IMG/VR virus record: IMGVR_UViG_3300035698_011322
Location: 10,658 to 74,657 of that record
Source of the DNA: a virus
Strand: one strand, 5' to 3'
Length of the DNA: 64,000 nt
Part shown: piece by piece, positions 13,137 through 43,308 of the stretch
How positions within the stretch are numbered: position 1 is the first letter of the stretch
Layout of the letters: each line of letters starts with the position of its first letter
The notes under the pieces: model-generated
Told to the model about the DNA's origin: nothing
Databases searched by the model: none
What the model saw: the letters and a program-made list of their open reading frames with translations, nothing else
Translations under genes and position numbers: made by a program

Positions 13137-13142
13137 ATTTTT

Positions 13143-27945: not shown

Positions 27946-28019
27946 TTTTTATTCGTGTACAATGGTAAATGATTGTGTTATTCTTAATATTATTAACTAC
28001 AGAAGGGAGTAACTCTCAA

Positions 28020-28268
28020 ATGGCAAGATATGACCGTAGTAAAGACATTGCGGTTTTTGAAAGAACGATAGGTGATGAAATCAACAAATCGCTTAAAGTG
28101 TCCGTAATGTCCTATAATGATGGAGAAAGAAAACTCCAGATTGGCCCCCGTACTTATATTAAACGCAATAGGTCCACTGGTTACGGCAAAGCAGGTCGCA
28201 TGACCCTTGATGAAGTAAAGTCAATCACAGACCTTATGCCTGAAATCGAAGGTGCAATGAACGCTTAA
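28020..28268 (+). CDS. PC4-like ssDNA/RNA-binding protein
   Basis: LKVSVMSYNDGERKLQIG.R...GRMTLDE; SD GGGAG. Confidence 0.55.
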   Translation: MARYDRSKDIAVFERTIGDEINKSLKVSVMSYNDGERKLQIGPRTYIKRNRSTGYGKAGRMTLDEVKSITDLMPEIEGAMNA

Positions 28269-28353
28269 TAATCAACAGGGCGGTGTTTTTCTGGGGACCA
28301 CAGTAGGTCCCAGCCGCCCATTAACAAGATTGTAAGAAAAAAGGGAACATGAA

Positions 28354-28722
28354 ATGAAAATAACACATGATAGATTTAATAGGACAGTGTGGGCTATTAA
28401 GAAAGACTTTACAGGAGCGCTGGCTAAGTACTTAGTAATACAATCACCGTATACCGTGCCAGAGAACCTATCAACGTGCATAGAGAAATTCGACCAGAAG
28501 CTTGACAAACTGGCATCATTTGACACCAATGGAATGGCTGAAATCTCTTTGTTGGGGTTAACCGCTAATGTAAATTCAATCCTTGAAAGCATCCCCGAAA
28601 TAATGGCTTTGAACGAGCCAAACGATGATTTTATAGACATCCTGGCGGTAGCTCAAAACATAACCTGTGCATTCGCAGAGGAAGCAGAGTCTCAATGTTA
28701 TCGGGAACACTGCATGGGCTGA
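28354..28722 (+). CDS. hypothetical protein
   Basis: 122-aa ORF with SD. Confidence 0.55.
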   Translation: MKITHDRFNRTVWAIKKDFTGALAKYLVIQSPYTVPENLSTCIEKFDQKLDKLASFDTNGMAEISLLGLTANVNSILESIPEIMALNEPNDDFIDILAVAQNITCAFAEEAESQCYREHCMG

Positions 28723-28817
28723 TCCTATTATTAACATGGGATCATATCTGGTGTAAGGCATTACCCAGTGATAACATGGGTTTAAAAGATATTATTGACT
28801 ACAATATAACAAAAGCA

Positions 28818-28868
28818 CTCGCATAGAGATCATTCTCGCATAGAGATCGTTCTCGCATAGAGATCGTT
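28818..28868. repeat. 17-bp tandem repeat x3 (CTCGCATAGAGATCRTT)
   Basis: Read directly; intergenic. Confidence 0.85.
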
Positions 28869-29077
28869 TAGTTTGAATAGTTCAGATATCTTCTTAACCA
28901 ATCCGCAAAAATCCTTGTGGTTTACATCATATCGATCATTTATTATGGTGATAATAACGCAAAAACTATAATAAGCTTGATCGAGTGTAAAGTAGAAATA
29001 AGTCGTGTTCATTTTAGCGTTATGGATAAAAGCACACTTAAAGTAAACCGGGTATGAATTTAAAAAAGGAGTGTACA

Positions 29078-29281
29078 ATGATTAAACAAGATGATATATT
29101 AGAAATTAAGTTCAGGATCAAAGAAGTTCAAGAATCATTACTTAATCTTACATGTTCTTTAGAAGAAATTGGTTTTAGAGAAAGCGATTTAGAAATAATA
29201 AATTTATCGAATACAATTGATTCACATTTTGATAGTATTAACGAAGTAATGAAGTTGAGTTTGTTTAAAAGGAAAGTTTAG
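29078..29281 (+). CDS. hypothetical protein
   Basis: SD AGGAG before MIKQDD. Confidence 0.5.
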   Translation: MIKQDDILEIKFRIKEVQESLLNLTCSLEEIGFRESDLEIINLSNTIDSHFDSINEVMKLSLFKRKV

Positions 29282-29384
29282 AAAAGTGATTTACATATTA
29301 TCTTAATTTTGAGATAATAAATCCAACTGTTAGAAAAATCTTCTTCAAGGTTTTGAAAAAACAGTAAAAATCAAAGGAGGCAAC

Positions 29385-29681
29385 ATGAATAAGAAAGGAT
29401 TGACGAATTTCGTAGCAGAGGAAGCAGGGATTACTAAAAAGGACGCTAACGCACTGATCGGTGTGGTTCTGGATGGTGTCACCAGCGGTATTACTACCGA
29501 TGGTAAAGTGACCCTGGTTGGTTTCGGGACATTTTCAGTAGTGACCAGGAACGCCCGTATGGCTCGGAACCCACGGACTGGGGAAGCGATTTCGGTTCCT
29601 GAGAAAACGGTTCCGAAGTTCAAACCGTCCAAGAAACTGAAGGAAGCTACCCTCGGTTTCGAGGCACCTGCCGCAGAGTAA
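29385..29681 (+). CDS. hup: HU/IHF-family DNA-binding protein
   Basis: MNKKGL...VTLVGFGTF...ARNPRTGE...PKFKPSK.LK. Confidence 0.95.
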   Translation: MNKKGLTNFVAEEAGITKKDANALIGVVLDGVTSGITTDGKVTLVGFGTFSVVTRNARMARNPRTGEAISVPEKTVPKFKPSKKLKEATLGFEAPAAE

Positions 29682-29701
29682 TAATACTCGGTAGGATTGA
29701 C

Positions 29702-29738
29702 AAAAAAGGGATGATGGCGAGTTCATCATCCCTTTTTT
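29702..29738 (+). terminator. intrinsic terminator
   Basis: GGGATGATG / CATCATCCC stem followed by T7. Confidence 0.85.
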
Positions 29739-29811
29739 GTTTACATTTTGAATTGTGTGTGGTACACTTCTTATGAATGAGGGCAAATCAAATGAAAAAA
29801 GGATAAATCAA

Positions 29812-30078
29812 ATGAAAAAAGAAAAAATAATAGTTTTTGATTATACTGATGCTATTCATGGTTCCGCGCCTTGGCATTATAAAGATGATCACTCGCCTGT
29901 AAAATATGAAGTTGAGGCATGGTGCCTTCAAGGTGATACAGGGTTTAGAGCGTTTTTTTATTTAGGCGACAAAATATGTGAAGCTCATGGCGATGATGGT
30001 CATTGGTGGTTGATAGGGTGCATGCATAAAAACTGGATTAAAGACTTCAAAAATGTTGTTAATTCTATTGAAGAGTAA
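29812..30078 (+). CDS. hypothetical protein
   Basis: ORF after early promoter; start MKKEKII. Confidence 0.5.
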   Translation: MKKEKIIVFDYTDAIHGSAPWHYKDDHSPVKYEVEAWCLQGDTGFRAFFYLGDKICEAHGDDGHWWLIGCMHKNWIKDFKNVVNSIEE

Positions 30079-30091
30079 AGGGTGATCAAAA

Positions 30092-30445
30092 ATGGCAAAG
30101 ATCACAACTCATTGTGAGGACTGCGTAAGATTATTAGGAAAACCATATAAAGAAGTCCATGTGTGGTTGGATCATTATGCCAAGAAGTTCAATCCTTTTA
30201 TCTATCTTGAATATCATAGACAATTCAGGCACACAGAGGTGGCACTTAATAAAAAATTCAAGGAATGGGGTTTCTATAGACAACAAGCCGCTAAAATCCA
30301 TATCATAAGAGACAATGAAGATTTTGTTCTCAGTAAACTATTTTGTCAAGTAGAAGTTGAGGAAATAGATGCTCTGTATGAAAAAGCAAAACAGTGTTTA
30401 CATCCTGGTGAAATCGATTATAATGTAGATAACTATAAATTTTAA
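30092..30445 (+). CDS. His-rich conserved phage protein
   Basis: H......G....VH.WLD...HR..RH...A..HI..D pattern. Confidence 0.6.
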   Translation: MAKITTHCEDCVRLLGKPYKEVHVWLDHYAKKFNPFIYLEYHRQFRHTEVALNKKFKEWGFYRQQAAKIHIIRDNEDFVLSKLFCQVEVEEIDALYEKAKQCLHPGEIDYNVDNYKF

Positions 30446-30465
30446 GGTGGGGGTGGGGGGTTAAA

Positions 30466-30708
30466 ATGGTAAAAATTTGTGTTAAATGTAATGTGTGCCA
30501 TGATCGATATCCAAAGATAATAGAAGTAGATGCTCGAGAAGTCAATGAGCAAATGCGGGAACTGTTGGGAATTGTAGAACAAGATAATTGGATAGTTGAT
30601 TGGCAGTCCGGTGACGCGACTTGTACAGACTGTTTGGGTGAAATAGGTATAGAGGTTGAAATTGACCCCAAAACCGGTGATTACAAAACACTGTCATTTA
30701 AGGAGTAA
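30466..30708 (+). CDS. Zn-ribbon protein
   Basis: CNVC...CTDC. Confidence 0.5.
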   Translation: MVKICVKCNVCHDRYPKIIEVDAREVNEQMRELLGIVEQDNWIVDWQSGDATCTDCLGEIGIEVEIDPKTGDYKTLSFKE

Positions 30709-30770
30709 ATACACAGAAATACTCATGATAAATATAGAAGCAAAGAAAAATATTTTTTTCAAATAACTAG

Positions 30771-30833
30771 TTTACATTTTATCTCAAAAAAGTTATAATA
30801 AATCTTAGTCAAAGTAAGAAAGTTATATAAATA
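30771..30833 (+). promoter_or_regulatory. dual early (TTTACA-N17-TATAAT) + late (TATAAATA) promoter of tRNA array 1
   Basis: 30771-30799 and 30826-30833; paralogous to 34487-34549. Confidence 0.8.
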
Positions 30834-30941
30834 GAATTGAGGATAACGTTGAAGAATATTTTAGTCAAATATTGCAAAATCTGGATAAAGTGGACTATAA
30901 AACAAACTCCAGTATATTCTCTTCAATAAAAGGAAAATATT

Positions 30942-31064
30942 ATGTCAAGAACAACTAAAAAAACTACTACAAGGGGCAATGATTATCGATATATAGTCGA
31001 ACATCATATTTATGCAATCGTACCGACAACGCATATTATCCCAACAGAGGAACATAATATGTAA
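30942..31064 (+). CDS. attenuator leader peptide 1 (40 aa)
   Basis: MSRTTKKTTTRGNDYRYIVEHHIYAIVPTTHIIPTEEHNM; SD AAGGA; stop 3 nt before antiterminator arm. Confidence 0.75.
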   Translation: MSRTTKKTTTRGNDYRYIVEHHIYAIVPTTHIIPTEEHNM

Positions 31065-31067
31065 GTA

Positions 31068-31136
31068 TTAGCTGAAATATAAGTAATAACCTAAAGGGTT
31101 TCAGCTAAGTTAAAAGTTGAAATCCTTTTTTAGTTT
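31068..31136 (+). terminator. alternative antiterminator/terminator switch 1
   Basis: 31068-78 pairs with 31098-108; 31093-106 pairs with 31115-128, followed by a U-run. Confidence 0.8.
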
Positions 31137-31138
31137 AT

Positions 31139-31212
31139 GGTTCCATCGTCTAATGGTAGGACACCAGACTTTCGATCTGAGAATCGGGGTTCGATCCCCC
31201 GTGGAATCGCCA
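31139..31212 (+). tRNA. tRNA-Glu(TTC)
   Basis: Cloverleaf, loop CTTTCGA, GTTCGA, CCA. Confidence 0.85.
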
Positions 31213-31261
31213 AATTCACCCCGCGAAGAGGGTGTTGAAATAATATCTTCGACAAACATAT

Positions 31262-31336
31262 CGCCGAGAAGGCTTGGGGTAAGCCCCTGGTTTTGGGTAC
31301 CAGTAGCTGTGAGTTCAACTCTCACCTCGGCGACCA
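31262..31336 (+). tRNA. tRNA-Pro(TGG)
   Basis: C1-G72, loop TTTGGGT, CCA. Confidence 0.8.
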
Positions 31337-31344
31337 ATTTTTAT

Positions 31345-31421
31345 GGTGGTTGTGGCGAATTGGTAAACGCGATCGGTTGTGGCCCGATTATTAGTGGGAT
31401 CGTTACCCACCAATCACCCCA
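31345..31421 (+). tRNA. tRNA-His(GTG)
   Basis: G-1/C73, loop TTGTGGC, CCA. Confidence 0.85.
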
Positions 31422-31497
31422 TTTTATGATCCATATATGAGGCATGTTTACAAAATAATTTGATAGTGTTATAATATAATCTTGAAAGGAAAGAATA

Positions 31498-31812
31498 ATG
31501 AATGAAAATTATGAAAAACAAATGAAAGTTAATGAATCCTTTGAAGAGTGTCTTTATAAATTAAAAGATAAAATACAAGTCACCAAATATAGTTATGAAA
31601 TGTATAATGCCTTGAGTAATATACAATGGCAGAATATAAAAGATCCAGAAAATATTTATTCATGTTCATGGCGATATGCAGGTGGTATGATTGCAGAAAT
31701 AAAAGGATATGGTGAAAACTATTTAGATTTTTATTGTTCTGGCAATGAAGGTATGGTAACAGAAGAGATTGAGAATGATCTTAATGAATTAGGTTGGAAA
31801 TCATTAGAATGA
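31498..31812 (+). CDS. conserved phage hypothetical protein
   Basis: YSCSWRYAGG.IA...YLDFYCSG.EG.VT.EI..DL..LGW. Confidence 0.7.
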   Translation: MNENYEKQMKVNESFEECLYKLKDKIQVTKYSYEMYNALSNIQWQNIKDPENIYSCSWRYAGGMIAEIKGYGENYLDFYCSGNEGMVTEEIENDLNELGWKSLE

Positions 31813-31839
31813 AATTTTGATATAATATGAAGTAAATGA

Positions 31840-31929
31840 GCGTCGGCCAATAGTGTAAGTGGAGAACACAAGTGGCTGTAACCCACCCGCTGAAAAGCTT
31901 TGGGGGTTCGACTCCCTCCCGGCGCACCA
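31840..31929 (+). tRNA. tRNA-Tyr(GTA)
   Basis: Loop CTGTAAC, variable arm, T arm, CCA; extra nucleotides before the D arm. Confidence 0.75.
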
Positions 31930-32158
31930 TTTATGATTCGTATATAGACCATAAGACACCTTTATGATCCATGTACGAATCACGTTTACAAAATAAAATA
32001 TCTATGTTATAGTGGGGTATATTAAATGGAATATTGTATTTTGAGAGAATCATTAAATGAGTGGACAACAGATACAATTTGTTCAAGTAAGAAATATAGA
32101 CCAATCAAGGGAATTAAGTATAAGTACACTTGTGATAACTATAAATTGGAGATAATAA

Positions 32159-32347
32159 ATGGAATACAATGATCTAGTAAAAAATGTTTCAAAGGATGCC
32201 GGTATTGATGAAGAAGAAGCAGAAAAATGTACGGAATCTTTCTTTAAATATTTTGAAGGTAAACCAGAAAGTGTACTGGAAGAATTCTTTGGTTATAATC
32301 TGATAGAAATAGATTTTAAATATGATGATATGAGATACAAATGGTAA
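32159..32347 (+). CDS. small acidic protein
   Basis: SD GGAG. Confidence 0.5.
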   Translation: MEYNDLVKNVSKDAGIDEEEAEKCTESFFKYFEGKPESVLEEFFGYNLIEIDFKYDDMRYKW

Positions 32348-32784
32348 TAGAAAATTATAAACCTTTTAGTGAACAGTTTACAGAGTGTCAAGAGAATGGT
32401 AATCTGATAAAGATCGATACATCGATGATGAAAGGATTATATGGTCATGATGTTGGTGAGATAAATGTCTGTATAAAATATAAATCAATTTGTCATTCTG
32501 GAGTATGTAGAGAAGAAAGGACAAAGATGAGAATTAAATGTACCGCAATACGATATGAAGGTAAAATATATGAAGGCAAACGTCATGCTGTAATTGGTTT
32601 AAAAATGGTACATGATGATATTTGTTCCGCACCTTATCCATTCGGTGATGATCAGGGTTTTGTAACAGAATGTGGAAAGTATGTTCACAGAGCACCGGCA
32701 CTTATGATTGCACTTAGATCAGGTCAAGTGAAAGAAGGCGAACATATACGACCAAATGAATTATATAGTGAAGATTTAAAGTAA
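32341..32784 (+). CDS. hypothetical protein
   Basis: C-terminal G.RH...QGFVT..G.YV.R..A...LYSEDL pattern. Confidence 0.6.
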   Translation: MVIENYKPFSEQFTECQENGNLIKIDTSMMKGLYGHDVGEINVCIKYKSICHSGVCREERTKMRIKCTAIRYEGKIYEGKRHAVIGLKMVHDDICSAPYPFGDDQGFVTECGKYVHRAPALMIALRSGQVKEGEHIRPNELYSEDLK

Positions 32785-32790
32785 GTAATA

Positions 32791-32885
32791 GAGGGGGATG
32801 TTCCGGTGAGCGGACTGTAAATTCGTTGCACGTTAAAATTTCATCGGCGGCTGTGTGAGTGGTTCGATTCCTCCATCCCTCACCA
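32791..32885 (+). tRNA. tRNA-Tyr(GTA)-like, D-armless
   Basis: Anticodon arm GCGGA-CTGTAAA-TTCGT, GTTCGATT loop, CCA; no D arm. Confidence 0.55.
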
Positions 32886-32895
32886 AAAAATATAA

Positions 32896-32982
32896 GCTCT
32901 TGTCGCATAGTGATCGATTGCACTGGTTTCGTAATCCAGCGGAATAATTCCCACGTAGGTTTAAATCCTATCAAGGGCTCCA
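32896..32982 (+). tRNA. tRNA-Thr(CGT) with long variable arm
   Basis: GCTCTTG/CAAGGGC acceptor, loop TTCGTAA, CCA. Confidence 0.75.
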
Positions 32983-33025
32983 GAAACAATAATAAAGATA
33001 AAGATAAAGGATTAAGGGTAATCAA

Positions 33026-33727
33026 ATGAAAATTATAATAGCAGGCGATGTTCATGGTCGATTCGGTGAACTAAACACACTTATCAGTAAACAAAAACCA
33101 AATCTTGTGATCTGTTGTGGTGACTTTGGTTACTGGCCTCACTTTGGTAAAGATGAGTTTAATAAAATCAAACCACAAGGCTCAAAGATACTGTGGTGTG
33201 ATGGGAACCATGAAGATCATTGGTCTTTGAGAGACAGAAAAACCGATGAATTCGTGAAAGACGTTCATTATATGCCAAGAGGATCAACATTTACATTAAG
33301 CGATGGTCGTGTCTTACTCTTTATGGGTGGCGGAGATTCAATTGATAAAAATTCTAGAACAACTGGTGTTGATTGGTTTCCAGAAGAAGTGATTGGACAA
33401 AAAGATATTGAGAACCTTCCTGACAAGAAAATTGATATTGTTATATCTCATACTTGCCCACTTGAGCTATTAGGTGAAATGAGAGGATATCGAGAAAAAA
33501 AAGTAGAACCTTCTAATCACGCTCTTAGCTACATTTTAGAAAAATATAATCCTCGCCAATGGTTTTATGGTCACTGGCATTCATATAAAGAAGTGTTACT
33601 GAGAAGCACAAAGTTTACTGCTCTATCATGTTTGCCTACTTACATGGGTCATGGTAGATGGTGGATTGAGTTAGATGAGAAAATATCGAGTAAAATATCA
33701 ACATTTAGTTTTAATGATAATTTTTAA
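33026..33727 (+). CDS. metallophosphoesterase
   Basis: GDVHG, GDFG, DGNHE, ISHTCP, YGHWH. Confidence 0.9.
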   Translation: MKIIIAGDVHGRFGELNTLISKQKPNLVICCGDFGYWPHFGKDEFNKIKPQGSKILWCDGNHEDHWSLRDRKTDEFVKDVHYMPRGSTFTLSDGRVLLFMGGGDSIDKNSRTTGVDWFPEEVIGQKDIENLPDKKIDIVISHTCPLELLGEMRGYREKKVEPSNHALSYILEKYNPRQWFYGHWHSYKEVLLRSTKFTALSCLPTYMGHGRWWIELDEKISSKISTFSFNDNF

Positions 33728-33943
33728 ATTTGGTTCGTAGTCGGAATTCTAACCAATAGAAGACGATGTTTCCAAGGGTGAAATTGATCAAAACAGGGAA
33801 GGGTGGTTCCTTTCAATGTCGTGATAAAGTAACCCAAAAACATAATATTGTAACATAAAAAGTTAATGTTGACCAGAGCGCGCACTAAATCAGTTAGTGC
33901 GCGCTGTGGTTTACATTAAGTATATAGAAAGGAGAAAGTAACA

Positions 33944-33990
33944 ATGATTTATCTATCCAATACCTTCTGATGTAACTTAACATTAGGAGG
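33944..33990 (+). promoter_or_regulatory. uORF MIYLSNTF overlapping an SD-sequestering hairpin
   Basis: 33963-73 pairs with 33980-90, which contains AGGAGG. Confidence 0.6.
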
Positions 33991-33997
33991 CATACAA

Positions 33998-34330
33998 ATG
34001 AAACATGGCGATATTATTCAAGAAGCAGATTGGCTACATTGGTGGCCTAAGTGGAAAAGATATCCACGTTTACAATACAGATTTAGATACGATCCTGTAC
34101 CATTATATATCAATAACTATCATAGAGGTTGTTGGTGTAAAAGACCACATCACATGAATGAAGAAAAACAATTCTATGCATGTGATCCAAAACTAGTAAG
34201 AGGAAAAAGACATCCAAGACACCTTCCAGATCCTTGGGATGATCACAAAAGAAGTGATCTAAGAGACAAAAGATCATGGAAAAAAGGATATAGAGTTCGT
34301 AAACAATGGATGAAACATATAGCCAGTTAG
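33998..34330 (+). CDS. basic Arg/Trp-rich protein (LPDPWDD...SWK...KQW)
   Basis: Strong SD; stop codon overlaps tRNA-Ile. Confidence 0.7.
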   Translation: MKHGDIIQEADWLHWWPKWKRYPRLQYRFRYDPVPLYINNYHRGCWCKRPHHMNEEKQFYACDPKLVRGKRHPRHLPDPWDDHKRSDLRDKRSWKKGYRVRKQWMKHIAS

Positions 34331-34394
34331 CTCAACGGAAGAGCCCGCGATCGATAATCGCGTGATAAAAGTTCAATTCTTTTACTGGCTACCA
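34321..34394 (+). tRNA. tRNA-Ile(GAT)
   Basis: Cloverleaf, loop TCGATAA, CCA. Confidence 0.8.
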
Positions 34395-34399
34395 AATTT

Positions 34400-34473
34400 A
34401 GCCCTATAATAGAATGGTAGAATATTTCTTTTACAAGGAAATTAACTTGGTTCGATTCCAAGTGGGGCTACCA
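34400..34473 (+). tRNA. tRNA-Val(TAC)
   Basis: Loop TTTACAA, GGTTCGATTCC, CCA. Confidence 0.75.
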
Positions 34474-34486
34474 AAATAAAAAGTAG

Positions 34487-34549
34487 TTTACAATTATTTC
34501 AAAAAAAGTTATAATAAATGTAATTGAAGTTGAGAAAGTTATATAAATA
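34487..34549 (+). promoter_or_regulatory. dual early + late promoter of tRNA array 2
   Basis: TTTACA 34487-92, TATAAT 34510-15, TATAAATA 34542-49. Confidence 0.8.
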
Positions 34550-34563
34550 GAAAGTAGGAGTAA

Positions 34564-34677
34564 ATGATGATGGCGAGAAAAATTAATAGGCAAAAACAGA
34601 ATAATAGATGTTTATCGACAGGCATACTTGCGTTCTCCTCATCATTTTTGAATTGGGCAGGAGATAAGTGCCTATGA
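34564..34677 (+). CDS. attenuator leader peptide 2 (up to 37 aa)
   Basis: MMMARKINRQKQNNRCLSTGILAFSSSFLNWAGDKCL; SD AGGAG; stop 2 nt before antiterminator arm. Confidence 0.75.
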   Translation: MMMARKINRQKQNNRCLSTGILAFSSSFLNWAGDKCL

Positions 34678-34679
34678 TC

Positions 34680-34751
34680 TAGCTGAAACATAAAGTAATA
34701 TTTTAAGGGGGTTTCAGCTAAAAAGTTAAAGTTGTAACCCCTTTTTAGTTT
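34680..34751 (+). terminator. alternative antiterminator/terminator switch 2
   Basis: 34680-89 pairs with 34711-20; 34705-19 pairs with 34730-44, followed by a U-run. Confidence 0.8.
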
Positions 34752-34755
34752 ATTC

Positions 34756-34830
34756 GGATATGTCGTATAAAGGGAATTATACTTGACTCTTAATCAAGAT
34801 GATGTTGGTTCAAATCAAATCGTACCATCA
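34756..34830 (+). tRNA. tRNA-Lys(CTT)-like, degenerate acceptor stem
   Basis: CTTGA-CTCTTAA-TCAAG arm and GGTTCAAATC loop; poor acceptor pairing. Confidence 0.5.
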
Positions 34831-34854
34831 AACAATAGAAAGGAAAATATTAAA

Positions 34855-35496
34855 ATGAACACATATCATAAAATCCAAACGGTATTTTTAAGAGATCCTA
34901 AAACTAAGTTCAAAACACTTTTAGAAGGTCAGTTTGCTAAATTTGAGTTTGAATATCTCGCAGAACTTATGTGGGCATGGACAGAAAAAGTTGATGGTAC
35001 TAATATTCGCGTACAGTATGATAGTGATGAAAAGAGCCTTAACTTTAATGGCAAGACAGATAGGGCTCAGTTACAGGCAACTCTTTTCGAGTACCTAACA
35101 GAAACCTTTACACCAAAGAAACAACTTTTTATGGATACATTTGATAAAGAGAATGTTAAAGTATGTTTATACGGTGAGGGTTATGGCCCCAGAATTCAAA
35201 AAGGTGGTGGCCTGTATCGTAAAGATCAGAGTTTTGTATTGTTCGATGTAAAGATCAATGATTGGTGGTTAAAACGTGGTGATGTAGAAAATATCGGACA
35301 TAAGTTTGGTATTGATGTTGTACCAATCATTCGCCATGGTAATCTTTATGAAATGGTCGAGTTTGTTAGAAATGGTTTTAATTCACAATGGGGAGATTTT
35401 CTAGCAGAAGGTATTGTTGCAAGACCATTCGTGGATTTGAGAGCAAGAAGTGGTGAAAGAATCATTACTAAACTAAAATGTAAAGATTTTGTATAA
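34855..35496 (+). CDS. RNA ligase (Rnl2-like nucleotidyltransferase)
   Basis: YHKI, TEKVDGTN, LYGEGYG, LFDV, AEGIV.RP, ITKLK. Confidence 0.85.
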   Translation: MNTYHKIQTVFLRDPKTKFKTLLEGQFAKFEFEYLAELMWAWTEKVDGTNIRVQYDSDEKSLNFNGKTDRAQLQATLFEYLTETFTPKKQLFMDTFDKENVKVCLYGEGYGPRIQKGGGLYRKDQSFVLFDVKINDWWLKRGDVENIGHKFGIDVVPIIRHGNLYEMVEFVRNGFNSQWGDFLAEGIVARPFVDLRARSGERIITKLKCKDFV

Positions 35497-35588
35497 AATG
35501 AATATTGTGGATTAGAGAAGTGGCCTATATAGGAGGGTTCGAATCCTTCAGATAGGTGGGGGTGATCGATTTCCAACCCGCCATATAA

Positions 35589-35661
35589 GGGTTTGTAGTT
35601 CAATGGTAGAACATTCGGTTCTTACCCGAAAAATTAGGTTTCGATACCTACGAACCCACCA
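35589..35661 (+). tRNA. tRNA-Lys(CTT)
   Basis: Cloverleaf, loop TTCTTAC, CCA. Confidence 0.7.
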
Positions 35662-35683
35662 TACAATAGAAAGGAGTATTAAA

Positions 35684-36382
35684 ATGGAAAAGTTAACTAA
35701 TTACCCAAAAACATATTGCCCCTTTATAAGAAAAACATTTGATGTTAATAAAGATCAATGGAAAAAATATGGTCGAAAACTTCAACTACGTGAGCCTAAT
35801 GTTTATCTTGCAGTGAATGAGATTAATCCTGGTTATGAATGGGTTCTTGATGATCCTGATACGTTTGCAGTTGAAAAACTTGATGGTACAAATGTTAAAC
35901 TCAAAACAGAAAATGGTAGATTAATTGCTCTTCAAAATAGATTGAATATCATTGATCCACTTCAAATAGTAAAAGGTAAGGCATTTATTCTCGAAGGCGT
36001 TTTTCAAGCAATTGGGAAGGGTTATGTTGAGAAAGATGGGGAACAATCAGGCGAAGTTATTGGAACAAAACTTCAAGGCAATCCATATGAACTCAATAAT
36101 ACACATCTATGGTATCCTTTTGAAAAGTCTATAAAGCATTTAAAATACAAGTCTTTTTTTAATCATGATAGAACTTTTGATAATTGGAGTTCATGGTTCA
36201 AAGATTACTTATTTTCCCTCTTTGCAATGAAAAGAGGTAACAAGGATATTATGGCAGAAGGTGTAATATTTTATAATCTAAAAAGAAAAGCCGAAGGTAA
36301 AATATATAGAGCAAAACTTAGAAGAGACATGTTTGAATGGTATTATAGTGATAAGATTGATATTTACAATTATCATGGGTAA
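35684..36382 (+). CDS. second RNA-ligase-like nucleotidyltransferase
   Basis: EKLDGTN, GEVIG.K.QGNPY, AEGVIF, AKLRRDMF. Confidence 0.75.
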   Translation: MEKLTNYPKTYCPFIRKTFDVNKDQWKKYGRKLQLREPNVYLAVNEINPGYEWVLDDPDTFAVEKLDGTNVKLKTENGRLIALQNRLNIIDPLQIVKGKAFILEGVFQAIGKGYVEKDGEQSGEVIGTKLQGNPYELNNTHLWYPFEKSIKHLKYKSFFNHDRTFDNWSSWFKDYLFSLFAMKRGNKDIMAEGVIFYNLKRKAEGKIYRAKLRRDMFEWYYSDKIDIYNYHG

Positions 36383-36402
36383 TGATATTATAAAATAAAT
36401 GA

Positions 36403-36491
36403 TGCGGGTTAGAGTAGCCAGGTCAACTCACTAGTCTCATAAGCTAGAGCTCTTAACGAGCACGGGGGTTCGAGTCCCCCACCCGCTACCA
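36403..36491 (+). tRNA. tRNA-Met(CAT), 1:72 mismatch, long variable arm
   Basis: Loop CTCATAA, T arm, CCA. Confidence 0.75.
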
Positions 36492-36724
36492 AAAAAGATA
36501 AACGAGTTTGACTCATGTTTATAGTGTTCTAGACACCATTTAAAAATAGTTGGTTTGTGCTCAAAGAATATCAATTATGGCATATTCATTGTAGTATACT
36601 GAGTGAAAGCCTCAGGACTCGTTTGTTGATAAAAAAGTAGTGAGAATGTATAATAAAGATTACGTTGTGAACACGAACGTTATGTGGTAAAACATGGTTT
36701 TGTATAGGTCCTGGAGTGCCCTAA

Positions 36725-36801
36725 GCCCTTGTAGCTGAACTGGATCAGCACGAAACTTCTAATTTCGTTCTATGTGGGTTCGAATCCCATCAAGGGTTCC
36801 A
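36725..36801 (+). tRNA. tRNA-Arg(TCT)
   Basis: Loop CTTCTAA, cloverleaf, CCA. Confidence 0.85.
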
Positions 36802-36809
36802 AAAAATAC

Positions 36810-36887
36810 GGTCTGTTGGAAGTAGGTGGTGAACTTCGTGAGACTGTCAATCTCAAGTAGCGGGTTCGATTCCCGTACAGACCGCCA
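36810..36887 (+). tRNA. tRNA-Asp(GTC)
   Basis: Loop CTGTCAA, G73-CCA. Confidence 0.9.
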
Positions 36888-37063
36888 AAGAAATGGTATC
36901 ATAAGTTAATACCATAGAAGAAGATTATAAGTTAAAATCTATTCCAGAATGGTGTCCTTTAGAAAATGCAGAAGAGTATCATTTACATGGACGTATAGAT
37001 CATCCATTTTAATAGAATGAGGAAGGCGCCGTCAACAGTGACAAACAATATAAATTAATCTTA

Positions 37064-37149
37064 GGAAGAAATCCGGTTGGATGAGGACGCAGTCTTGAAA
37101 ACTGTTGGGTGTAAAAGCTTTGGGGGTTCGAATCCCTCTTCTTCCGCCA
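37064..37149 (+). tRNA. tRNA-Ser(TGA)
   Basis: Loop CTTGAAA, variable arm, G73-CCA. Confidence 0.85.
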
Positions 37150-37196
37150 TTAAAGAGTTTTGATGATTTTTATACATTTTGAACTAAATTATTATT

Positions 37197-37262
37197 GCGG
37201 CCTGAGCTAGTGTGGTCATATCGTTCGGTTTAAACCCGGAAGAATTCAGAGAGGTCGCGCCA
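37197..37262 (+). pseudogene. tRNA remnant lacking a T arm (loop TTTAAAC)
   Basis: Acceptor GCGGCCT/AGGTCGC + CCA; anticodon arm present; T arm missing. Confidence 0.55.
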
Positions 37263-37448
37263 AAATTAAAGGAGTATGATAGTGAGTAAAACAATAATAA
37301 TGGCAGAAGAATTTGGTATTTATTGGTCTAAAGATGATCTAAAGAACCTAAGAGAACTGTTATACATAGGTTTGGGTGGTAATATTGGCGATGAAAGAAT
37401 AAATTATATAGGAATCGCGGTTATAGACAGAATAGAGGAGAGATTAAA

Positions 37449-37880
37449 ATGAACTTAATACCACTTGAAAAATGTGTAAAGGGCAGAGTATATAAACTCG
37501 ATTGCCGTAATTTTAATTATGGTGTGTATAATGGTAAATATGGCTTCATTGGTATTCGCCGCAAGTTCAATGATAGATTTCTATTTACTGAATATCACAA
37601 AGATATAGATCCCCACTATGGTACTGTTATAAGAATGGAAGACATGGGTATCGATGTTCCGGATGATATAGAACTAAAAGAAGACGAGCCAACCATTGAT
37701 AGAAATACTGGCAGACACGTGTGGTTCGATAAACCAGTTGTTGATGGTGGTCGAGGCTGGGTATACAAAGATACTGATGAAAATAGTTATGATATAAAAC
37801 CAGTCTCTCATGTGAATAGAAAATTGTTTAAATTCTTGGATGATATGTGGGAGGATTTTAATTATACAGAAGTAGAGTAA
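37449..37880 (+). CDS. hypothetical protein
   Basis: SD GAGGAG; 143 aa. Confidence 0.65.
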   Translation: MNLIPLEKCVKGRVYKLDCRNFNYGVYNGKYGFIGIRRKFNDRFLFTEYHKDIDPHYGTVIRMEDMGIDVPDDIELKEDEPTIDRNTGRHVWFDKPVVDGGRGWVYKDTDENSYDIKPVSHVNRKLFKFLDDMWEDFNYTEVE

Positions 37881-37885
37881 TATAA

Positions 37886-37970
37886 GCACCCAGCCCTTAA
37901 TCTGAGAGGGACTCAGGCAAGTCTCCAAAGCTTGTGGCATAAAGGCGTTCAACTCGTCCTGGGTGTGCCA
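37886..37970 (+). tRNA. tRNA-Trp(CCA), atypical D region
   Basis: Loop CTCCAAA, G73-CCA. Confidence 0.65.
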
Positions 37971-37980
37971 AAATAAATAT

Positions 37981-38056
37981 GGGGGCGTAGCCAAATCGGG
38001 AAGGCACTTGGTTTGCAACCAAGAGATTGAGGGATCGTTCCCCTCCGCCTCCACCA
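37981..38056 (+). tRNA. tRNA-Ala(TGC)
   Basis: G3:U70, loop TTTGCAA, CCA. Confidence 0.85.
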
Positions 38057-38133
38057 AATGATTTAATAGATAAAAAAACATCAATACTTTATGGTTGGAA
38101 AAGAGGTAGATCAAAAGGTAATTTTAATCCTAT

Positions 38134-38212
38134 ACCCTAGTATACCCTCTGGCTACGAACCAGTTGAAAGGTTAACGAACACATGTGGGTTTGAATCCCA
38201 TCTAGGGTTCCA
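38134..38212 (+). tRNA. tRNA-Arg(ACG)-like, D-armless
   Basis: ACCCTAG/CTAGGGT acceptor, CTGG-CTACGAA-CCAG arm, T arm, CCA; no D arm. Confidence 0.6.
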
Positions 38213-38216
38213 CTAA

Positions 38217-38293
38217 GGGCTGTGTTATCAGATGGTTTTCTGGTGACTGGTTGCAATCCAGTTTTTGAGGTTCAATTCCTCCGCGGCCCTCCA
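38217..38293 (+). tRNA. tRNA-Cys(GCA)
   Basis: Loop TTGCAAT, U73-CCA. Confidence 0.7.
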
Positions 38294-38345
38294 ACTTTAA
38301 AAAAAAGTAGTTTACAATAAATATGATTTGAGATATAATAGTTAA

Positions 38346-38575
38346 ATATGACATAGATAGTTCCTATAAAAATATTAATAAATAAGAAATACTATCCGTC
38401 ATATAATTAGTTATCAAGTGACATAAATGGTTCCTCTATAAAAACTGGAACCGGATGCTGGCGAGCCTTTGGTTCGTACCAGACCGGTTATTAAATTACC
38501 ATTCGTCATTTAAAATATTGGGCAAATGAAAGTTCCTATAAAACACACTTGATATGTATAATTACTTTCCGCCCA
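38346..38575 (+). ncRNA. array of three covarying bulged hairpins in the leader of the TerD-like gene
   Basis: Units at 38346-404, 38416-511 and 38519-575; promoter TTTACA-N17-TATAAT at 38311-39. Confidence 0.7.
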
Positions 38576-38591
38576 TAACAAATTAAAAGGA

Positions 38592-40502
38592 GTGAAAATG
38601 AAACGATCATTGTTAAGATTATTTAAAGCTGTTGAGATCGAATCCACACCTAAACATAAAGATGCCGAAGTTAGCCGTTATATCAATGGTATAACATTAA
38701 AGAGTGGTTTCGTTTTCTCTCCAGAGATTCATTATAATTGTCCTCAAAGCAAAATGATAGAGATGGCCAATGTAATAACTAATGAATTGGGTATCACTTC
38801 AGAACAAATGAATAATGCTTTCCATAAGTCATGGGATAAGGTTGCCAATGCTGATCTGTTATTGCTTCAATTAGAACAAGCAATTCATTATGCAACAACC
38901 TATGGTTATGAATCAATCGGTATATTCAAGAACAGTACTGTATTCATTCCAGATGAACAATTGGATGTACCTGGTTTAGAAAATGGTATTAAGTTAACTG
39001 TTATCAAAGGTATGACAAAGTATGATATGAGAGTTGCCTTGATGGACTTGCTTGATACGGGCATTGCATTGAAAGAAGATACAGTTGTTGATTGTGTTGT
39101 ATTGGGTAAATATCTTGAACTGTCAAATGATGAAATCAATAGTATCAATAATAAAGAAGTAAAGACTGCTCTTTTTGATGAACTAGGTGGTGTTCCAAAG
39201 AATCCAATTGAGTTCCTGAGATATGTTGTTTATAGAGTTACTGGTAAAACATTATTGATCAAAAATCAAGCACTTATTGCTCAAATCAAAGAAGGTAATT
39301 TGGATAGAGCACTTGATCCATTTAAAATGTATGATATTGGATATGGTATGAATCATTTGTCAGGAATCTTCAATAGATTCAAACCATTGTTCTTGGCTTT
39401 CAAGGCTCATAGGGAATTGAAGCCTGTTATAAACAAGTTGAGTAAACTTTCTAAGAAATATCATGAACCAATGAAGAGTGATTATTTAAATGATATTACA
39501 GCTATGATTAAGAATAGTATACACATTGATGTTCGTACTCTTCGAGACAAACTTAACAAAGCAAACGCTTTCAGAAAAATCAGATTGGCTTATGCTTTAA
39601 ACTATAGAACCAATGATGTTAGTTCAATCCTTTATAGAGTCAGAAATGGCAAGGGGTTTTCAACTGAATTTTCGTTTGATAATAAGAGAGTTGCCAAGAG
39701 AGCACTGAACATTGTATTGGATTCGATTGCCAAAGATCTTAAAAGAAATGTGGAAGGCAAGAAAATATATGTTCCATCTAATATTAGATATGCTCTGCCT
39801 GCAACTGAGAAACAATTTACAGGCAACTTCCCAACTGGCACAAGTGTAGTGGTTGATAGTGATATGATCTTTGGTATTCATTGGAATGATATTGGTGGAT
39901 ATAGAATTGATTTGGATCTATCATTAATTGATGTAACTGGATATAAATATGGCTGGGATAGCAATTATCGTAATGAAGATAAGAGTATTTTGTTTTCTGG
40001 TGATATGACTTCCGCTCCTGGGCCAATGGGTGCAACGGAGTTGTTCTATGTTAGAAATAATGTTGTTGGATCAAACATCTTGTCAGTTAATTATTACAAC
40101 TATATGGATGATGTTCCTGTTCCATTCAAGATCATTGTTGGTAAAGATAAAACAGATAAGTTCAGAAATAACTATGTACTCGATCCTAATAATGTAGTAA
40201 TGACGTCTTCATCAAAAATGAATGTTAAACAAAAGGTATTGGGTCTACTGAACACTACTAAAGATGAATGTAGATTTTACTTCACAGAGGTTGATATGGG
40301 TAACTCTATAACATCATCTTCTACGTATGATTATGTTACTCATGCTAGAAAGTATATGTTCGACTTCTATAAAAACAACATAGACCTTGATGTGATGCTA
40401 CTAATGGCGGGTGCTGAGTTTGTAGAAAATGTAGAAGATTGTGACATTGATCTTTCACCTGAGAATATTAAAAAGGATGATATAATTAATATGTTAGTGT
40501 AA
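38592..40502 (+). CDS. large helical protein with C-terminal TerD-like domain
   Basis: FGIHW...IDLDLS...W...FSGDMTSAP...GATE pattern. Confidence 0.65.
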   Translation: MKMKRSLLRLFKAVEIESTPKHKDAEVSRYINGITLKSGFVFSPEIHYNCPQSKMIEMANVITNELGITSEQMNNAFHKSWDKVANADLLLLQLEQAIHYATTYGYESIGIFKNSTVFIPDEQLDVPGLENGIKLTVIKGMTKYDMRVALMDLLDTGIALKEDTVVDCVVLGKYLELSNDEINSINNKEVKTALFDELGGVPKNPIEFLRYVVYRVTGKTLLIKNQALIAQIKEGNLDRALDPFKMYDIGYGMNHLSGIFNRFKPLFLAFKAHRELKPVINKLSKLSKKYHEPMKSDYLNDITAMIKNSIHIDVRTLRDKLNKANAFRKIRLAYALNYRTNDVSSILYRVRNGKGFSTEFSFDNKRVAKRALNIVLDSIAKDLKRNVEGKKIYVPSNIRYALPATEKQFTGNFPTGTSVVVDSDMIFGIHWNDIGGYRIDLDLSLIDVTGYKYGWDSNYRNEDKSILFSGDMTSAPGPMGATELFYVRNNVVGSNILSVNYYNYMDDVPVPFKIIVGKDKTDKFRNNYVLDPNNVVMTSSSKMNVKQKVLGLLNTTKDECRFYFTEVDMGNSITSSSTYDYVTHARKYMFDFYKNNIDLDVMLLMAGAEFVENVEDCDIDLSPENIKKDDIINMLV

Positions 40503-40511
40503 GGGAATCAA

Positions 40512-40595
40512 GCCACCATAGAGGAAATGGTCTACTCAACAGGTTTAGGCCCTGTGCCTTCGGGCGTCTCGGTTCGAATCCGAGTGGTGGTACCA
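40512..40595 (+). tRNA. tRNA-Leu(TAG)
   Basis: Loop TTTAGGC, variable arm, CCA. Confidence 0.9.
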
Positions 40596-40607
40596 GTTAA
40601 TAATTAA

Positions 40608-40694
40608 GCGGTTGTAGACTAATTGATAAGTCACCAGTCTTCCAAGCTGGCGTCAGAAATGACATTGTGAGTTTGAATCTCACCAGCCGCTCCA
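40608..40694 (+). tRNA. tRNA-Gly(TCC) with long variable arm
   Basis: GCGGTTG/CAGCCGC acceptor, loop CTTCCAA, U73-CCA. Confidence 0.8.
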
Positions 40695-40930
40695 ATAAAG
40701 GATTGGTGATTATGATGGACACAATAAAAGATAGAGCTAAAGAATTATTGAGACTAAGTAGAATAGAACTGAAAAGAAGATCAGAGTTACTTAAACTAAA
40801 GAATATAGAAGGGGCTGGTAAAATAAAACTAGCTGTTATGATCGCTGTGAAAGAATATATTGATGATCCAGACTAGTTTACATTTTATATACTATCTGAT
40901 ATACTATATACAAGTTAAAGAATTGTGTAT

Positions 40931-41123
40931 TTATAGGGAGAGAGTTGAGATTGGGGATGATAAACTCAACAGAGATATGGGCAAATCCGGATAAGCCCCA
41001 TATAGCATAAAGGTTAATTGCGAGAAAGAACTGTTCAATTCGAATATCGCGACATCCTGTAAAAAGTTATGCTTGTCTCAATAGAGGCAAGTATAACAAC
41101 AATATGTAACTCTCCCGCTATAA
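40931..41123 (+). ncRNA. putative ~190-nt multibranch RNA
   Basis: Closing stem GGGAGAGTT/AACTCTCCC plus internal hairpins; promoter at ~40877. Confidence 0.45.
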
Positions 41124-41134
41124 GTACATAATTT

Positions 41135-41212
41135 GCCGGAGTGGTGTAAATGGTAGCCACGCGAGGTTTAAGCCTTCGTGCCTGAGATGGTGTAGGGGGG
41201 TTTCCGGTATCA
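41135..41212 (+). pseudogene. tRNA-Leu(TAA) with damaged T arm
   Basis: D arm, loop TTTAAGC and variable arm intact; T loop missing. Confidence 0.6.
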
Positions 41213-41217
41213 TATAT

Positions 41218-41292
41218 CGCGGAGAGGATGCTGGTTTCCAACTAGGGCTCATATCCCTGGTCGCGTCGGTTCGATTCCGATCTCCGCTCCCA
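41218..41292 (+). tRNA. initiator-type tRNA-Met(CAT)
   Basis: C1 mismatch, GGG/CCC anticodon stem, loop CTCATAT. Confidence 0.75.
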
Positions 41293-41299
41293 AAAATAA

Positions 41300-41376
41300 T
41301 GGGGTATCGTCCAATTGGCAGGACAGCGGACTTTGAATCCGCTAATGATCTGGTTCGAATCCATCTACCCCAGCCA
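41300..41376 (+). tRNA. tRNA-Gln(TTG)
   Basis: U1-A72, loop CTTTGAA, CCA. Confidence 0.85.
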
Positions 41377-41387
41377 TAATACAGCAT

Positions 41388-41473
41388 GCCCGCATAGACG
41401 AAATGTGGCATAGTCACTAGTTTCAAACACTAGGCCCTCGGGCGTGTAGGTTCGACCCCTACTGCGGGTACCA
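41388..41473 (+). tRNA. tRNA-Leu(CAA)
   Basis: Loop TTCAAAC, variable arm, CCA. Confidence 0.85.
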
Positions 41474-41487
41474 GAAAGGAAAAACAA

Positions 41488-41718
41488 ATGAAACTATGTA
41501 TAGATTGTAGATATTATGATAGTGTTAAAGGTATATCTTTATTCTTTAAAACAAAGGCATGCATACATCCAAAGAATATTGAAATAAATCCAGTCACTGG
41601 TGATATAGAGTATGGATCCACACCAAGTCATTTAAGAAAATTTGTTGATGCTTATTGTGATAAAGATGCTTATTGTGATAAAGATGGTAAGTGGTTTAAG
41701 AAAAGAGTGAAGAAATAA
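41488..41718 (+). CDS. small Cys-rich protein
   Basis: MKLCIDC..Y; short internal duplication DAYCDK. Confidence 0.6.
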   Translation: MKLCIDCRYYDSVKGISLFFKTKACIHPKNIEINPVTGDIEYGSTPSHLRKFVDAYCDKDAYCDKDGKWFKKRVKK

Positions 41719-41721
41719 TAT

Positions 41722-41796
41722 AGTCTAGTAGCTCAATGGTAGAGCATTCAACTTATAATTGAAAAACGTAAGGTTCGATTCCTTTCTAGACTACCA
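41722..41796 (+). tRNA. tRNA-Ile(TAT)
   Basis: Cloverleaf, loop CTTATAA, A73-CCA. Confidence 0.8.
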
Positions 41797-41888
41797 AATA
41801 ATTTTTATAGTTCAAAGTACTACAATGTTGCTCAAAAAAGAATTAGAGAGTATGTAAAGACACAGAATAGCAAAGGGGAATTTTTCAA

Positions 41889-42071
41889 ATGAAAATATTA
41901 CAAAAAGTTTTAATATTGGTTGGTCTTAGTGGGTTTCTATTAAGTGTTCTAGTTGCCATATTATTACCATCAGCCATTTCTCTCGCAGTGATTATATGGT
42001 TTTGTTCATCTTGTATTATGGCAATAATAGGTCTTGTATGGTATTATAGAAATCCAATTAAAATGTATTAG
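41889..42071 (+). CDS. small 2-TM membrane protein
   Basis: Two hydrophobic helices. Confidence 0.5.
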   Translation: MKILQKVLILVGLSGFLLSVLVAILLPSAISLAVIIWFCSSCIMAIIGLVWYYRNPIKMY

Positions 42072-42089
42072 GAGGAGGGGGGGGGGTTT

Positions 42090-42299
42090 ATGACAGATAT
42101 GAAATTTAAGCATTATATTTTATCACCGGATTTAGACGAAGCAGCATATATGGGTAACATAGGCTTTGAAGAACTTGTAAGCTACTATAAAAAAGCATCT
42201 AAAAAAGAAATTAAAATTATAGAAGATATAATTAAAAAAGAAGATTGGGAAGAATTTAAGAATCAAATCTTTAAGGTATTGGGTAAAAAACTAAAATAA
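42090..42299 (+). CDS. hypothetical protein
   Basis: MKFKHYI...LDEA...GNIGFEELV. Confidence 0.6.
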   Translation: MTDMKFKHYILSPDLDEAAYMGNIGFEELVSYYKKASKKEIKIIEDIIKKEDWEEFKNQIFKVLGKKLK

Positions 42300-42320
42300 G
42301 ATAATTCACAACTAAACACT

Positions 42321-42358
42321 AAATCGGCATAGGATTTTCATTCTATGCTGATTTTTTT
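42321..42358 (+). terminator. intrinsic terminator
   Basis: AAATCGGCATAG / CTATGCTGATTT followed by a T-run. Confidence 0.75.
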
Positions 42359-42560
42359 GTTTACATTTTTTACATAATTTAGTATAATATATGTAATGTT
42401 CTACACAATAAATTAAATTATGTAATTTATTTCATAGTAATTAATATTTTATAATGCTTTGTTTTCATATGTTTTGAAGTATTTTTTAAAATATTGGGAT
42501 ATTGGCATAATTATTGTATATAACATGTAGTAAAATAATAATAAAAAGGAGAATGAGAAA

Positions 42561-43283: not shown

Positions 43284-43308
43284 TATAAATAAAATATAAT
43301 AGAATATT

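Follow-up and report, generated by a model that had tools for sequence, protein, structure and literature searches.

How does a phage that carries many transfer RNA (tRNA) genes control their expression? The regulation of phages' own tRNA genes is, to our knowledge, essentially unknown, and why phages carry tRNAs is still debated, with codon compensation set against escape from tRNA-targeting defences (PMC10264068). The question is raised here by a stretch of 64,000 nucleotides (the window) of the virus record IMGVR_UViG_3300035698_011322 from the IMG/VR database (positions 10,658 to 74,657), that is, 64 kb out of a 74.6-kb contig with an estimated completeness of 31%, whose + strand holds at least 22 tRNA or tRNA-like genes, with small genes in between, from about 31.1 to 41.8 kb. 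In front of the first of them, tRNA-Glu, lies a cassette formed by a short open reading frame (ORF) and two alternative RNA hairpins (leader 1), and a paralogous cassette (leader 2) lies further downstream among the tRNA genes. Our computational analysis indicates that leader 1 is probably a ribosome-mediated leader-peptide transcription attenuator, here called putative, placed ahead of phage tRNA genes.

The promoter, a Shine-Dalgarno (SD) sequence, the ORF with its stop codon, an antiterminator strand (arm A), an intrinsic terminator and tRNA-Glu follow each other inside 370 nt (Table 1). SD-like 4-mers were found ahead of 49 of the 83 long ORFs, compared to 13% of all ATGs. Arm A pairs over 11 bp (one of them G-U) with strand B (31098-31108) to form an antiterminator of -11.4 kcal/mol (z score against shuffled sequences, -2.6), and the terminator is a 14-bp stem with two G-U pairs followed by TTTTTT (-16.6 kcal/mol, z -4.7) that lies 10 nt upstream of tRNA-Glu, its activity being predicted from the stem. 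Strand B is part of the 5' arm of the terminator, so antiterminator and terminator are mutually exclusive, and in both cassettes it pairs perfectly with arm A but forms G-U pairs or a mismatch with strand C, the 3' arm of the terminator. These data agree with the original prediction for this locus, which had placed the TAA 3 nt before arm A and had the 11-bp pairing compete with the 14-bp terminator stem (31093-106/31115-128), both of which folded better than shuffles. They do not support the extra hairpin that it had placed before the SD, as the region from 30837 to 30930, which corresponds to the 88-nt insertion of Table 1, folded no better than shuffles (z -0.63). A further hairpin over the end of the ORF (31031-63) is a plausible candidate for an RNA-polymerase pause site that a translating ribosome could melt. 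It adjoins arm A without including it, and is thus not a 1:2 protector helix of the trp type; in the full-length fold of leader 1, arm A was unpaired with the coding region. We interpret leader 1 as an attenuator because an SD-preceded ORF, a stop codon at the antiterminator strand, two exclusive helices and a U-tract before the first tRNA occur together, and this interpretation is further backed by a paralogous cassette that matches the other tRNA array, by the genome-wide extreme composition of ORF 1 and by a homologous ORF, P0051.

According to this interpretation, transcripts from the leader 1 promoter would carry the 40-codon ORF, whose last 24 codons are nearly all Glu, Pro, His, Tyr, Thr, Ile or Val, and we infer that this ORF is translated. 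Downstream of its A site, a ribosome covers about 12-13 nt of RNA. With this geometry, an unhindered ribosome at the TAA would presumably cover arm A, strand B could pair only with strand C, and the terminator, which we presume to be efficient, would end the transcript 5-10 nt before tRNA-Glu. When decoding is slow, the ribosome would lag or stall at least three codons upstream, arm A would pair with strand B once B is made, and this antiterminator would let RNA polymerase continue into Glu-Pro-His and beyond. The predicted direction of the response would therefore be a negative feedback on the supply of the tRNAs of the leader 1 set, and induction would also be expected when host tRNAs for the codons of the set are scarce, poorly matched or destroyed. 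As the untranslated RNA offers no strand to sequester arm A, a leader without translation should read through (element ON), unlike trp. The co-transcriptional folding that the original prediction had proposed as a check gave results in line with this scheme. With arm A masked, as by a ribosome at the stop codon, the terminator was the only stable fold, and when a ribosome was placed at His38 or Pro34 the A:B helix formed before C was transcribed. The terminator is thermodynamically favoured after C is made, and the direct path out of A:B has to cross a barrier of about 14-15 kcal/mol in both leaders, so that the antiterminator would behave as a kinetic trap of the classical kind.

The composition of the leader peptide points to the genes that follow it. 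The tRNAs located between the leader 1 terminator and the next terminator-like switch (array 1) are Glu, Pro, His, Tyr (two genes), Thr, Ile and Val, and the seven amino acids that dominate ORF 1, E/P/H/Y/T/I/V, are exactly these isotypes. The original prediction had counted 27 residues of this set among the 40 of the peptide and had codons 17-38 all within the set bar one (21/22); both counts were confirmed. The binomial comparison with genome amino-acid usage that it had suggested was also favourable, with p values of 4e-5 for 27/40 and 5e-9 for 21/22, taking as background the share of the set in the long ORFs of this phage (0.355). Codons that it had listed as exact cognates of array 1 tRNAs (ACG, GTA, CCA, GAA and ATC) are present in ORF 1. 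Its statement that 21 of the 22 codons are read by array 1 tRNAs held at the amino-acid level and was too strong at the codon level, where the array 1 anticodons can decode 17 of the 22 codons of the run (background 0.23) and 18 of the 40 of the whole ORF. Among the 47,757 windows of 22 residues in the six frames of the contig, leader ORF 1 alone reached at least 19/22. When its own letters were shuffled, 27 was reached in 3 of 300,000 trials and 21/22 in none of 300,000. Furthermore, 39 of the 77,520 possible sets of seven amino acids equalled or exceeded 27 over the whole peptide, and the true set alone scored 21 on codons 17-38.

Leader 2, which was located by searching the whole contig with leader 1, acts as an internal replicate of these observations. 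Promoter, 19-nt block and switch span are about 80-100% identical between the two cassettes, the stop codon lies 2 nt ahead of arm A in leader 2 and 3 nt ahead in leader 1, and the leader 2 antiterminator is also stable (-13.4 kcal/mol, z -3.75). The leader 2 ORF could not be aligned with ORF 1, and where its DNA does align to leader 1 it is read in another frame. Its composition follows its own position in the array: only 3 of its 37 residues belong to the leader 1 set (p 1.4e-4), with zero E, P, H, Y and V and a single T, and 29 of the 37 are among its own downstream isotypes (K, M, R, D, S, A, C, L, G, Q and I). A 2x2 table of residues exclusive to one of the two groups gave 22/11 versus 1/27 (Fisher exact p 1.6e-7), the real split was the single best of the 8008 ways of dividing the 16 exclusive isotypes 6:10, and when the boundary was slid along the physical order of tRNA genes the optimum fell exactly at leader 2. 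In addition, the final nine codons of leader 2 include exact cognates of array 2 anticodons (TTG, GCA, GGA, AAG, TGC and CTA), several of them minor codons. Asn, Phe and Trp tRNAs, sought to account for the unmatched residues of leader 2, were not found.

The resemblance between the two cassettes goes beyond the pairing strands and bears on what drives the switch. The 70-nt switch is about 80% identical in both, its loop ATAAGTAATA included, and upstream of the ORFs the 19-nt block GAAAGTTATATAAATAGAA occurs exactly twice in the window, compared to 0.16 expected, within flanks that are about 80% identical. A late promoter and a binding site are both possibilities for this block. The motif TATAAATA that it contains was considered as a late promoter and discarded, since it is not over-represented in the window (17 copies seen, 14 of them co-oriented with transcription, versus 14.5 expected). 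The conserved switch could also be a binding site, and together with the full identity of the 19-nt block it would fit a switch in which another factor, for instance a tRNA, a small RNA or an RNA-binding protein of phage or host, takes the place of the ribosome, with the ORF incidental or serving only for ribosome delivery. We consider this improbable, because it would leave the SD, the ORF length, the placement of the stop codon and the composition match unaccounted for, and because no T-box or other Rfam family was recognized: a cmscan search of positions 28000-44000, at E values up to 1, returned only tRNA-type matches in the leader region.

To find out how far the cassette is conserved, relatives were sought through the peptide and through the genes around it. 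A phmmer search with leader 1 against 1.84 billion proteins returned a single 35-amino-acid ORF, P0051, 49-59% identical, which shares IYA..PTTH..PTEEHNM with leader 1 and conserves its C-terminal run. No Pfam match and no other homologue were obtained in this way; tblastn of the leader peptide against phage records gave nothing meaningful, and a word-based protein search with leader 1 alone and tblastn and blastn of both leaders against the collected relative loci gave nothing. The replacements between leader 1 and P0051 include H to V, H to Y and V to E, which are chemically radical and still stay inside the tRNA set. Syntenic relatives were searched for in viral, metagenome and genome contigs by means of the downstream gene of 104 amino acids, and among them one 1985-bp metagenome contig, L049, was the only one with the same terminator and Glu array: it carries Glu-Met-Pro-His, then a relative of the 104-amino-acid gene, followed by Thr-CGT and Thr-TGT. 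The 33 nt that precede tRNA-Glu at the start of this contig contain the last part of strand B and, after the loop, the 3' arm of the terminator with its T-tract, so the terminator before tRNA-Glu is conserved; the leader itself lies beyond the edge of the contig. Another protein, P0004, is 92% identical to the product of the neighbour gene of L049 and was absent from IMG/VR on search. We take P0051 to be, in all likelihood, the leader of a phage similar to L049. In this regard, P0051 has Met-Glu at the position of Ile-Val in leader 1, and in L049 the Glu and Pro genes are separated by a tRNA-Met gene, a single case that is suggestive of leader and array changing together. Other candidates were discarded: three relatives with tRNAs (L089, L101 and L102) have ordinary genes upstream, without terminator, the relatives of the RNA ligase gene have no tRNAs nearby, and a search of IMG/VR for the exact switch motif gave 33 loci, every one of them a fortuitous match inside a coding sequence. 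Neither a genuine copy of the exact switch nor the tRNA-Glu core pattern was found in IMG/VR viral contigs or GTDB genomes.

Between the phage of the window and its relative, the neighbour protein retains only about 60% identity, and a neutral stretch of 120 nt would not be expected to stay an ORF at such divergence; therefore, judging from this comparison, the leader ORF appears to be under selection. The same observation bears on whether the cassettes are a non-functional remnant, duplicated as a promoter-terminator unit and carrying accidental ORFs. Just two cassettes and one partial relative are at hand, and our hypothesis is post hoc. Against such an origin, the ORF was kept in the relative, an open frame of 37-40 codons in DNA of 33% GC has by a rough estimate a chance of about 6% each, both ORFs are preceded by an SD, and the set, partition, window, boundary and shuffle statistics all oppose chance, for which reasons we regard a fortuitous origin as highly improbable.

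Several observations weigh against the attenuator interpretation of leader 1, and two of them lead to different explanations. First, P0051 preserves the peptide sequence, specifically the C-terminal PTTH..PTEEHNM, beyond composition, which would fit a functional micro-protein too. The ORF would then encode a small functional protein, the hairpin would be an ordinary, partly leaky terminator or a 3'-end stabiliser after the RNase P cut at tRNA-Glu, and the composition match would be a coincidence; the distance from the end of the U-tract to the RNase P site is indeed only about 5 nt, and in T5-like phages numerous small ORFs stand among the tRNAs with no attenuator present. We find this explanation unlikely, because it accounts neither for the presence of arm A in both cassettes and its perfect pairing with strand B, nor for a stop codon 2-3 nt ahead of arm A in two ORFs of different frames, nor for the unique rank of ORF 1 among 47,757 windows and of the partition among 8008. 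Radical replacements that remain in the tRNA set, and the failure to find a Pfam family or any homologue beyond P0051, also argue against it.

Second, the match between leader and array is better at the amino-acid level than at the codon/anticodon level: 7 of the 8 Thr codons are ACA or ACT, unreadable by Thr-CGT, and one ATA and one GTC are not read either. This would be expected if the same ribosome-mediated switch sensed host amino-acid supply or tRNA charging, as a starvation sensor with no feedback loop through the phage tRNAs, and it is established knowledge that classical leaders sense charged tRNA. Extra tRNA gives no relief from amino-acid starvation, so the output of such a sensor would not address its signal. 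In addition, exact cognate minor codons are used (ACG, CCG and ATC in leader 1; TTG, AAG, CTA, TGC and GGA among the nine final codons of leader 2) and the two leaders partition according to the tRNA genes that follow each of them, all of which makes starvation sensing, in our opinion, improbable, on a par with a switch driven by another factor.

The remaining reservations about the attenuator interpretation concern its reach and its replicates. Glu, Pro and His are the only tRNAs of array 1 that depend solely on the leader 1 promoter. Strong promoter-like sites are found inside the array at 31447 and 31985, together with a hairpin after the first Tyr-like gene (31934-81; -19.2 kcal/mol, z -6.5) and another at 33861-33921 (-37.7 kcal/mol, z -9.1; GC-rich core of 12 bp, no U-tract). 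These internal promoters and hairpins may loosen the hold of leader 1 on Tyr, Thr, Ile and Val, and these account for 12 of the 22 residues of the run. Both Tyr genes are atypical and low-scoring (23.7 and 32.7 bits), the positive match of leader 2 is modest by itself (p about 0.01-0.02), and for P0051 both the switch and the link to an array like that of L049 are presumed. Lastly, the phage was recovered in three salt-lake metagenome DNA runs as identical low-depth pieces, which therefore provided no variants; the sequencing runs with the phage gave DNA contigs only, and no RNA run holding the leader region was found among them.

Table 1. Positions of the leader cassettes, tRNA genes and embedded protein genes in the window.
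Feature	Position	Strand	Basis or remark
Leader 1 promoter, sigma-70-type, TTTACA-N17-TATAAT	30771..30799	+	11/12 consensus positions; aligns with the paralogous 34487-34515
19-nt block GAAAGTTATATAAATAGAA, contains TATAAATA	30818..30836 and 34534-34552	+	100% identical in both leaders
88-nt insertion in the 5' untranslated region, absent from leader 2	30837..30924	+	alignment gap between leaders
SD AAGGA, 7 nt ahead of ATG	30930..30934	+	read from sequence
Leader ORF 1, 40 codons + TAA (31062-64), MSRTTKKTTTRGNDYRYIVEHHIYAIVPTTHIIPTEEHNM	30942..31064	+	homologue P0051
Regulatory run, codons 17-38	30990..31055	+	21/22 residues in E/P/H/Y/T/I/V
Hairpin spanning final ten codons and stop	31031..31063	+	free energy -8.1 kcal/mol, z -4.0; 0/200 shuffles equally stable
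Arm A, antiterminator 5' strand TTAGCTGAAAT	31068..31078	+	starts 3 nt past stop; conserved in leader 2
Intrinsic terminator, stem 31093-106/31115-128 + T6	31093..31134	+	terminator scan
tRNA-Glu (TTC)	31139..31212	+	ARAGORN; Rfam 58.2 bits; first gated gene (putative gating)
Decayed tRNA-Met remnant (Glu-Pro spacer)	31213..31261	+	aligns with complete tRNA-Met (CAT) gene of relative L049
tRNA-Pro (TGG)	31262-31336	+	ARAGORN
tRNA-His (GTG)	31346-31421	+	ARAGORN
tRNA-like gene, GUA (Tyr) anticodon, long variable arm, encoded CCA	31840..31929	+	Infernal, 23.7 bits, below Rfam gathering score
Second GUA (Tyr) tRNA-like gene	32792-32882	+	Infernal only, 32.7 bits
tRNA-Thr (CGT), long variable arm	32896-32979	+	Infernal only, 43.9 bits; Thr-CGT found in L049 too
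Calcineurin-like metallophosphoesterase	33026-33727		embedded in tRNA arrays
tRNA-Ile (GAT) and tRNA-Val (TAC), final tRNAs ahead of leader 2	34321..34473	+	ARAGORN
Leader 2 cassette	34487..34755	+	paralogue of leader 1; tRNA-Lys (CTT) from 34756, immediately after
Leader 2 promoter	34487-34515	+	
Leader 2 ORF, 37 codons, stop TGA, SD AGGAG	34564-34677	+	
Leader 2 arm A	34680-89	+	strand B 34711-20
Leader 2 terminator with T-tract	34705-44	+	
tRNA-Lys (CTT), atypical, low-scoring second Lys-CTT	34756-34827	+	missed by ARAGORN
RNA ligase	34855-35496		Pfam RNA_ligase, KxDG motif; embedded in tRNA arrays
Arg-ACG tRNA-like gene, without D arm, long variable arm	38134-38209	+	missed by ARAGORN

In the two GUA (Tyr) genes the D arm is aberrant or missing and ARAGORN misses both; a 7-bp acceptor stem can be read from the sequence of the first one. 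The spacer between Glu and Pro aligns with the tRNA-Met gene of L049, and is therefore a decayed tRNA-Met remnant. The remaining tRNA-like genes are the Lys-CTT and the Arg-ACG without D arm of Table 1. Between the RNA ligase gene and tRNA-Lys (35497-35588) a T-arm-like GGTTCGAATCC is present, but no tRNA model matches this segment. On the minus strand, Gly and Ser tRNAs (13047-13216) directly follow a gene of 141 amino acids, without a leader. Regarding the hairpins inside array 1, the one at 31934-31981 has a half copy after tRNA-His (31427-31446), and in L049 the same element stands in opposite orientation after the tRNA-His of that contig (355-410). The hairpin at 33861-33921 is situated in the gap that separates the phosphoesterase gene from the gene after it; a TTTACA box overlaps with its 3' side, and a role in processing or regulation is possible. 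Promoter-like sites of the TTTACA-N17-TATAAT type are common in the window, and its GC content ranges from 29 to 40%. Outside the tRNA region, intein splicing domains, together with a LAGLIDADG endonuclease domain, interrupt the gene of the ribonucleotide reductase large subunit (57109-61869, 1586 amino acids), and at 44626-46476 the phage encodes an NAD-dependent DNA ligase that has OB, zinc-finger, HhH and BRCT domains.

The RNA ligase and the metallophosphoesterase embedded in the arrays suggest a tRNA-repair function beside the phage tRNAs. A wider role for the attenuators can be proposed from this, which we hold possible though doubtful: the two cassettes might be depletion sensors in a phage counter-defence module, where loss of tRNAs through host anticodon nucleases, other tRNA-targeting defences or codon mismatch would stall the matching leader and turn on replacement tRNAs together with the RNA ligase and the metallophosphoesterase. 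Each leader would then be a programmable multi-codon gauge co-evolving with its array, a co-evolution that is hinted at by the Met codon of P0051 where the relative has a tRNA-Met gene.

Compared with known systems, leader 1 has the anatomy of a multivalent leader-peptide attenuator in every respect except for the trp-type protector helix, which is a mark of the trp-type subclass and not of attenuation in general. Enterobacterial leaders (thr, with Thr and Ile; ilvGMEDA, with Ile, Leu and Val; his, trp, leu and pheA) likewise consist of a short SD-preceded ORF rich in regulatory codons, followed by an antiterminator and a terminator that share a strand, where a ribosome at the stop codon blocks the antiterminator and stalling leads to read-through. 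The element described here differs from them in that it is phage-encoded, that the genes it would regulate are tRNAs instead of biosynthetic enzymes and that seven amino acids are represented, whereas there are one to three in the enterobacterial leaders. Unlike trp, it has no 1:2-type helix, and its untranslated state should not super-attenuate. A parallel in function is the pheM leader, through which the aminoacyl-tRNA synthetase operon pheST is controlled by attenuation. As in leader 1, a leader peptide would act on a component of the translation apparatus and provide feedback on decoding capacity, but pheST is a host gene system in which a synthetase is controlled and one amino acid (Phe) is sensed. 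T-boxes also report tRNA status to translation-related genes by transcription antitermination; they differ in binding uncharged tRNA directly, without ribosome or ORF, and we know of no T-box that controls tRNA genes. Leader-peptide attenuation of tRNA genes was not found in our literature search.

Among phages, the T5-like group (Demerecviridae) has a tRNA-Glu about 81% identical to that of the window, as well as tRNAs mixed with small ORFs. In the T5-like Salmonella phage beppo, in contrast, a gene of 181 amino acids overlaps the start of tRNA-Glu and no short leader/terminator cassette is annotated. The nearest published biology is the trn operon of Anabaena sp. PCC 7120, a long tRNA array that is induced under translational stress (PMC8421152; PMC10272220). 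There, too, an accessory tRNA array is turned on when translation is impaired and an RNA ligase (rtcB) is associated with it. It differs in that control is exerted at the promoter, on direct repeats bound by the ribbon-helix-helix (RHH) repressor TrcR, and in that the signal is not codon-specific; the terms 'attenuat', 'leader' and 'terminator' appear nowhere in the text describing TrcR. If our interpretation is true, the leader peptide would measure decoding capacity directly and in a codon-specific way, and the feedback would be built in. The composition of a leader would predict the content of its array, a readable signature that could be searched for across phage genomes, and attenuation of the trp/his type would extend from amino-acid biosynthesis to the tRNA pool.

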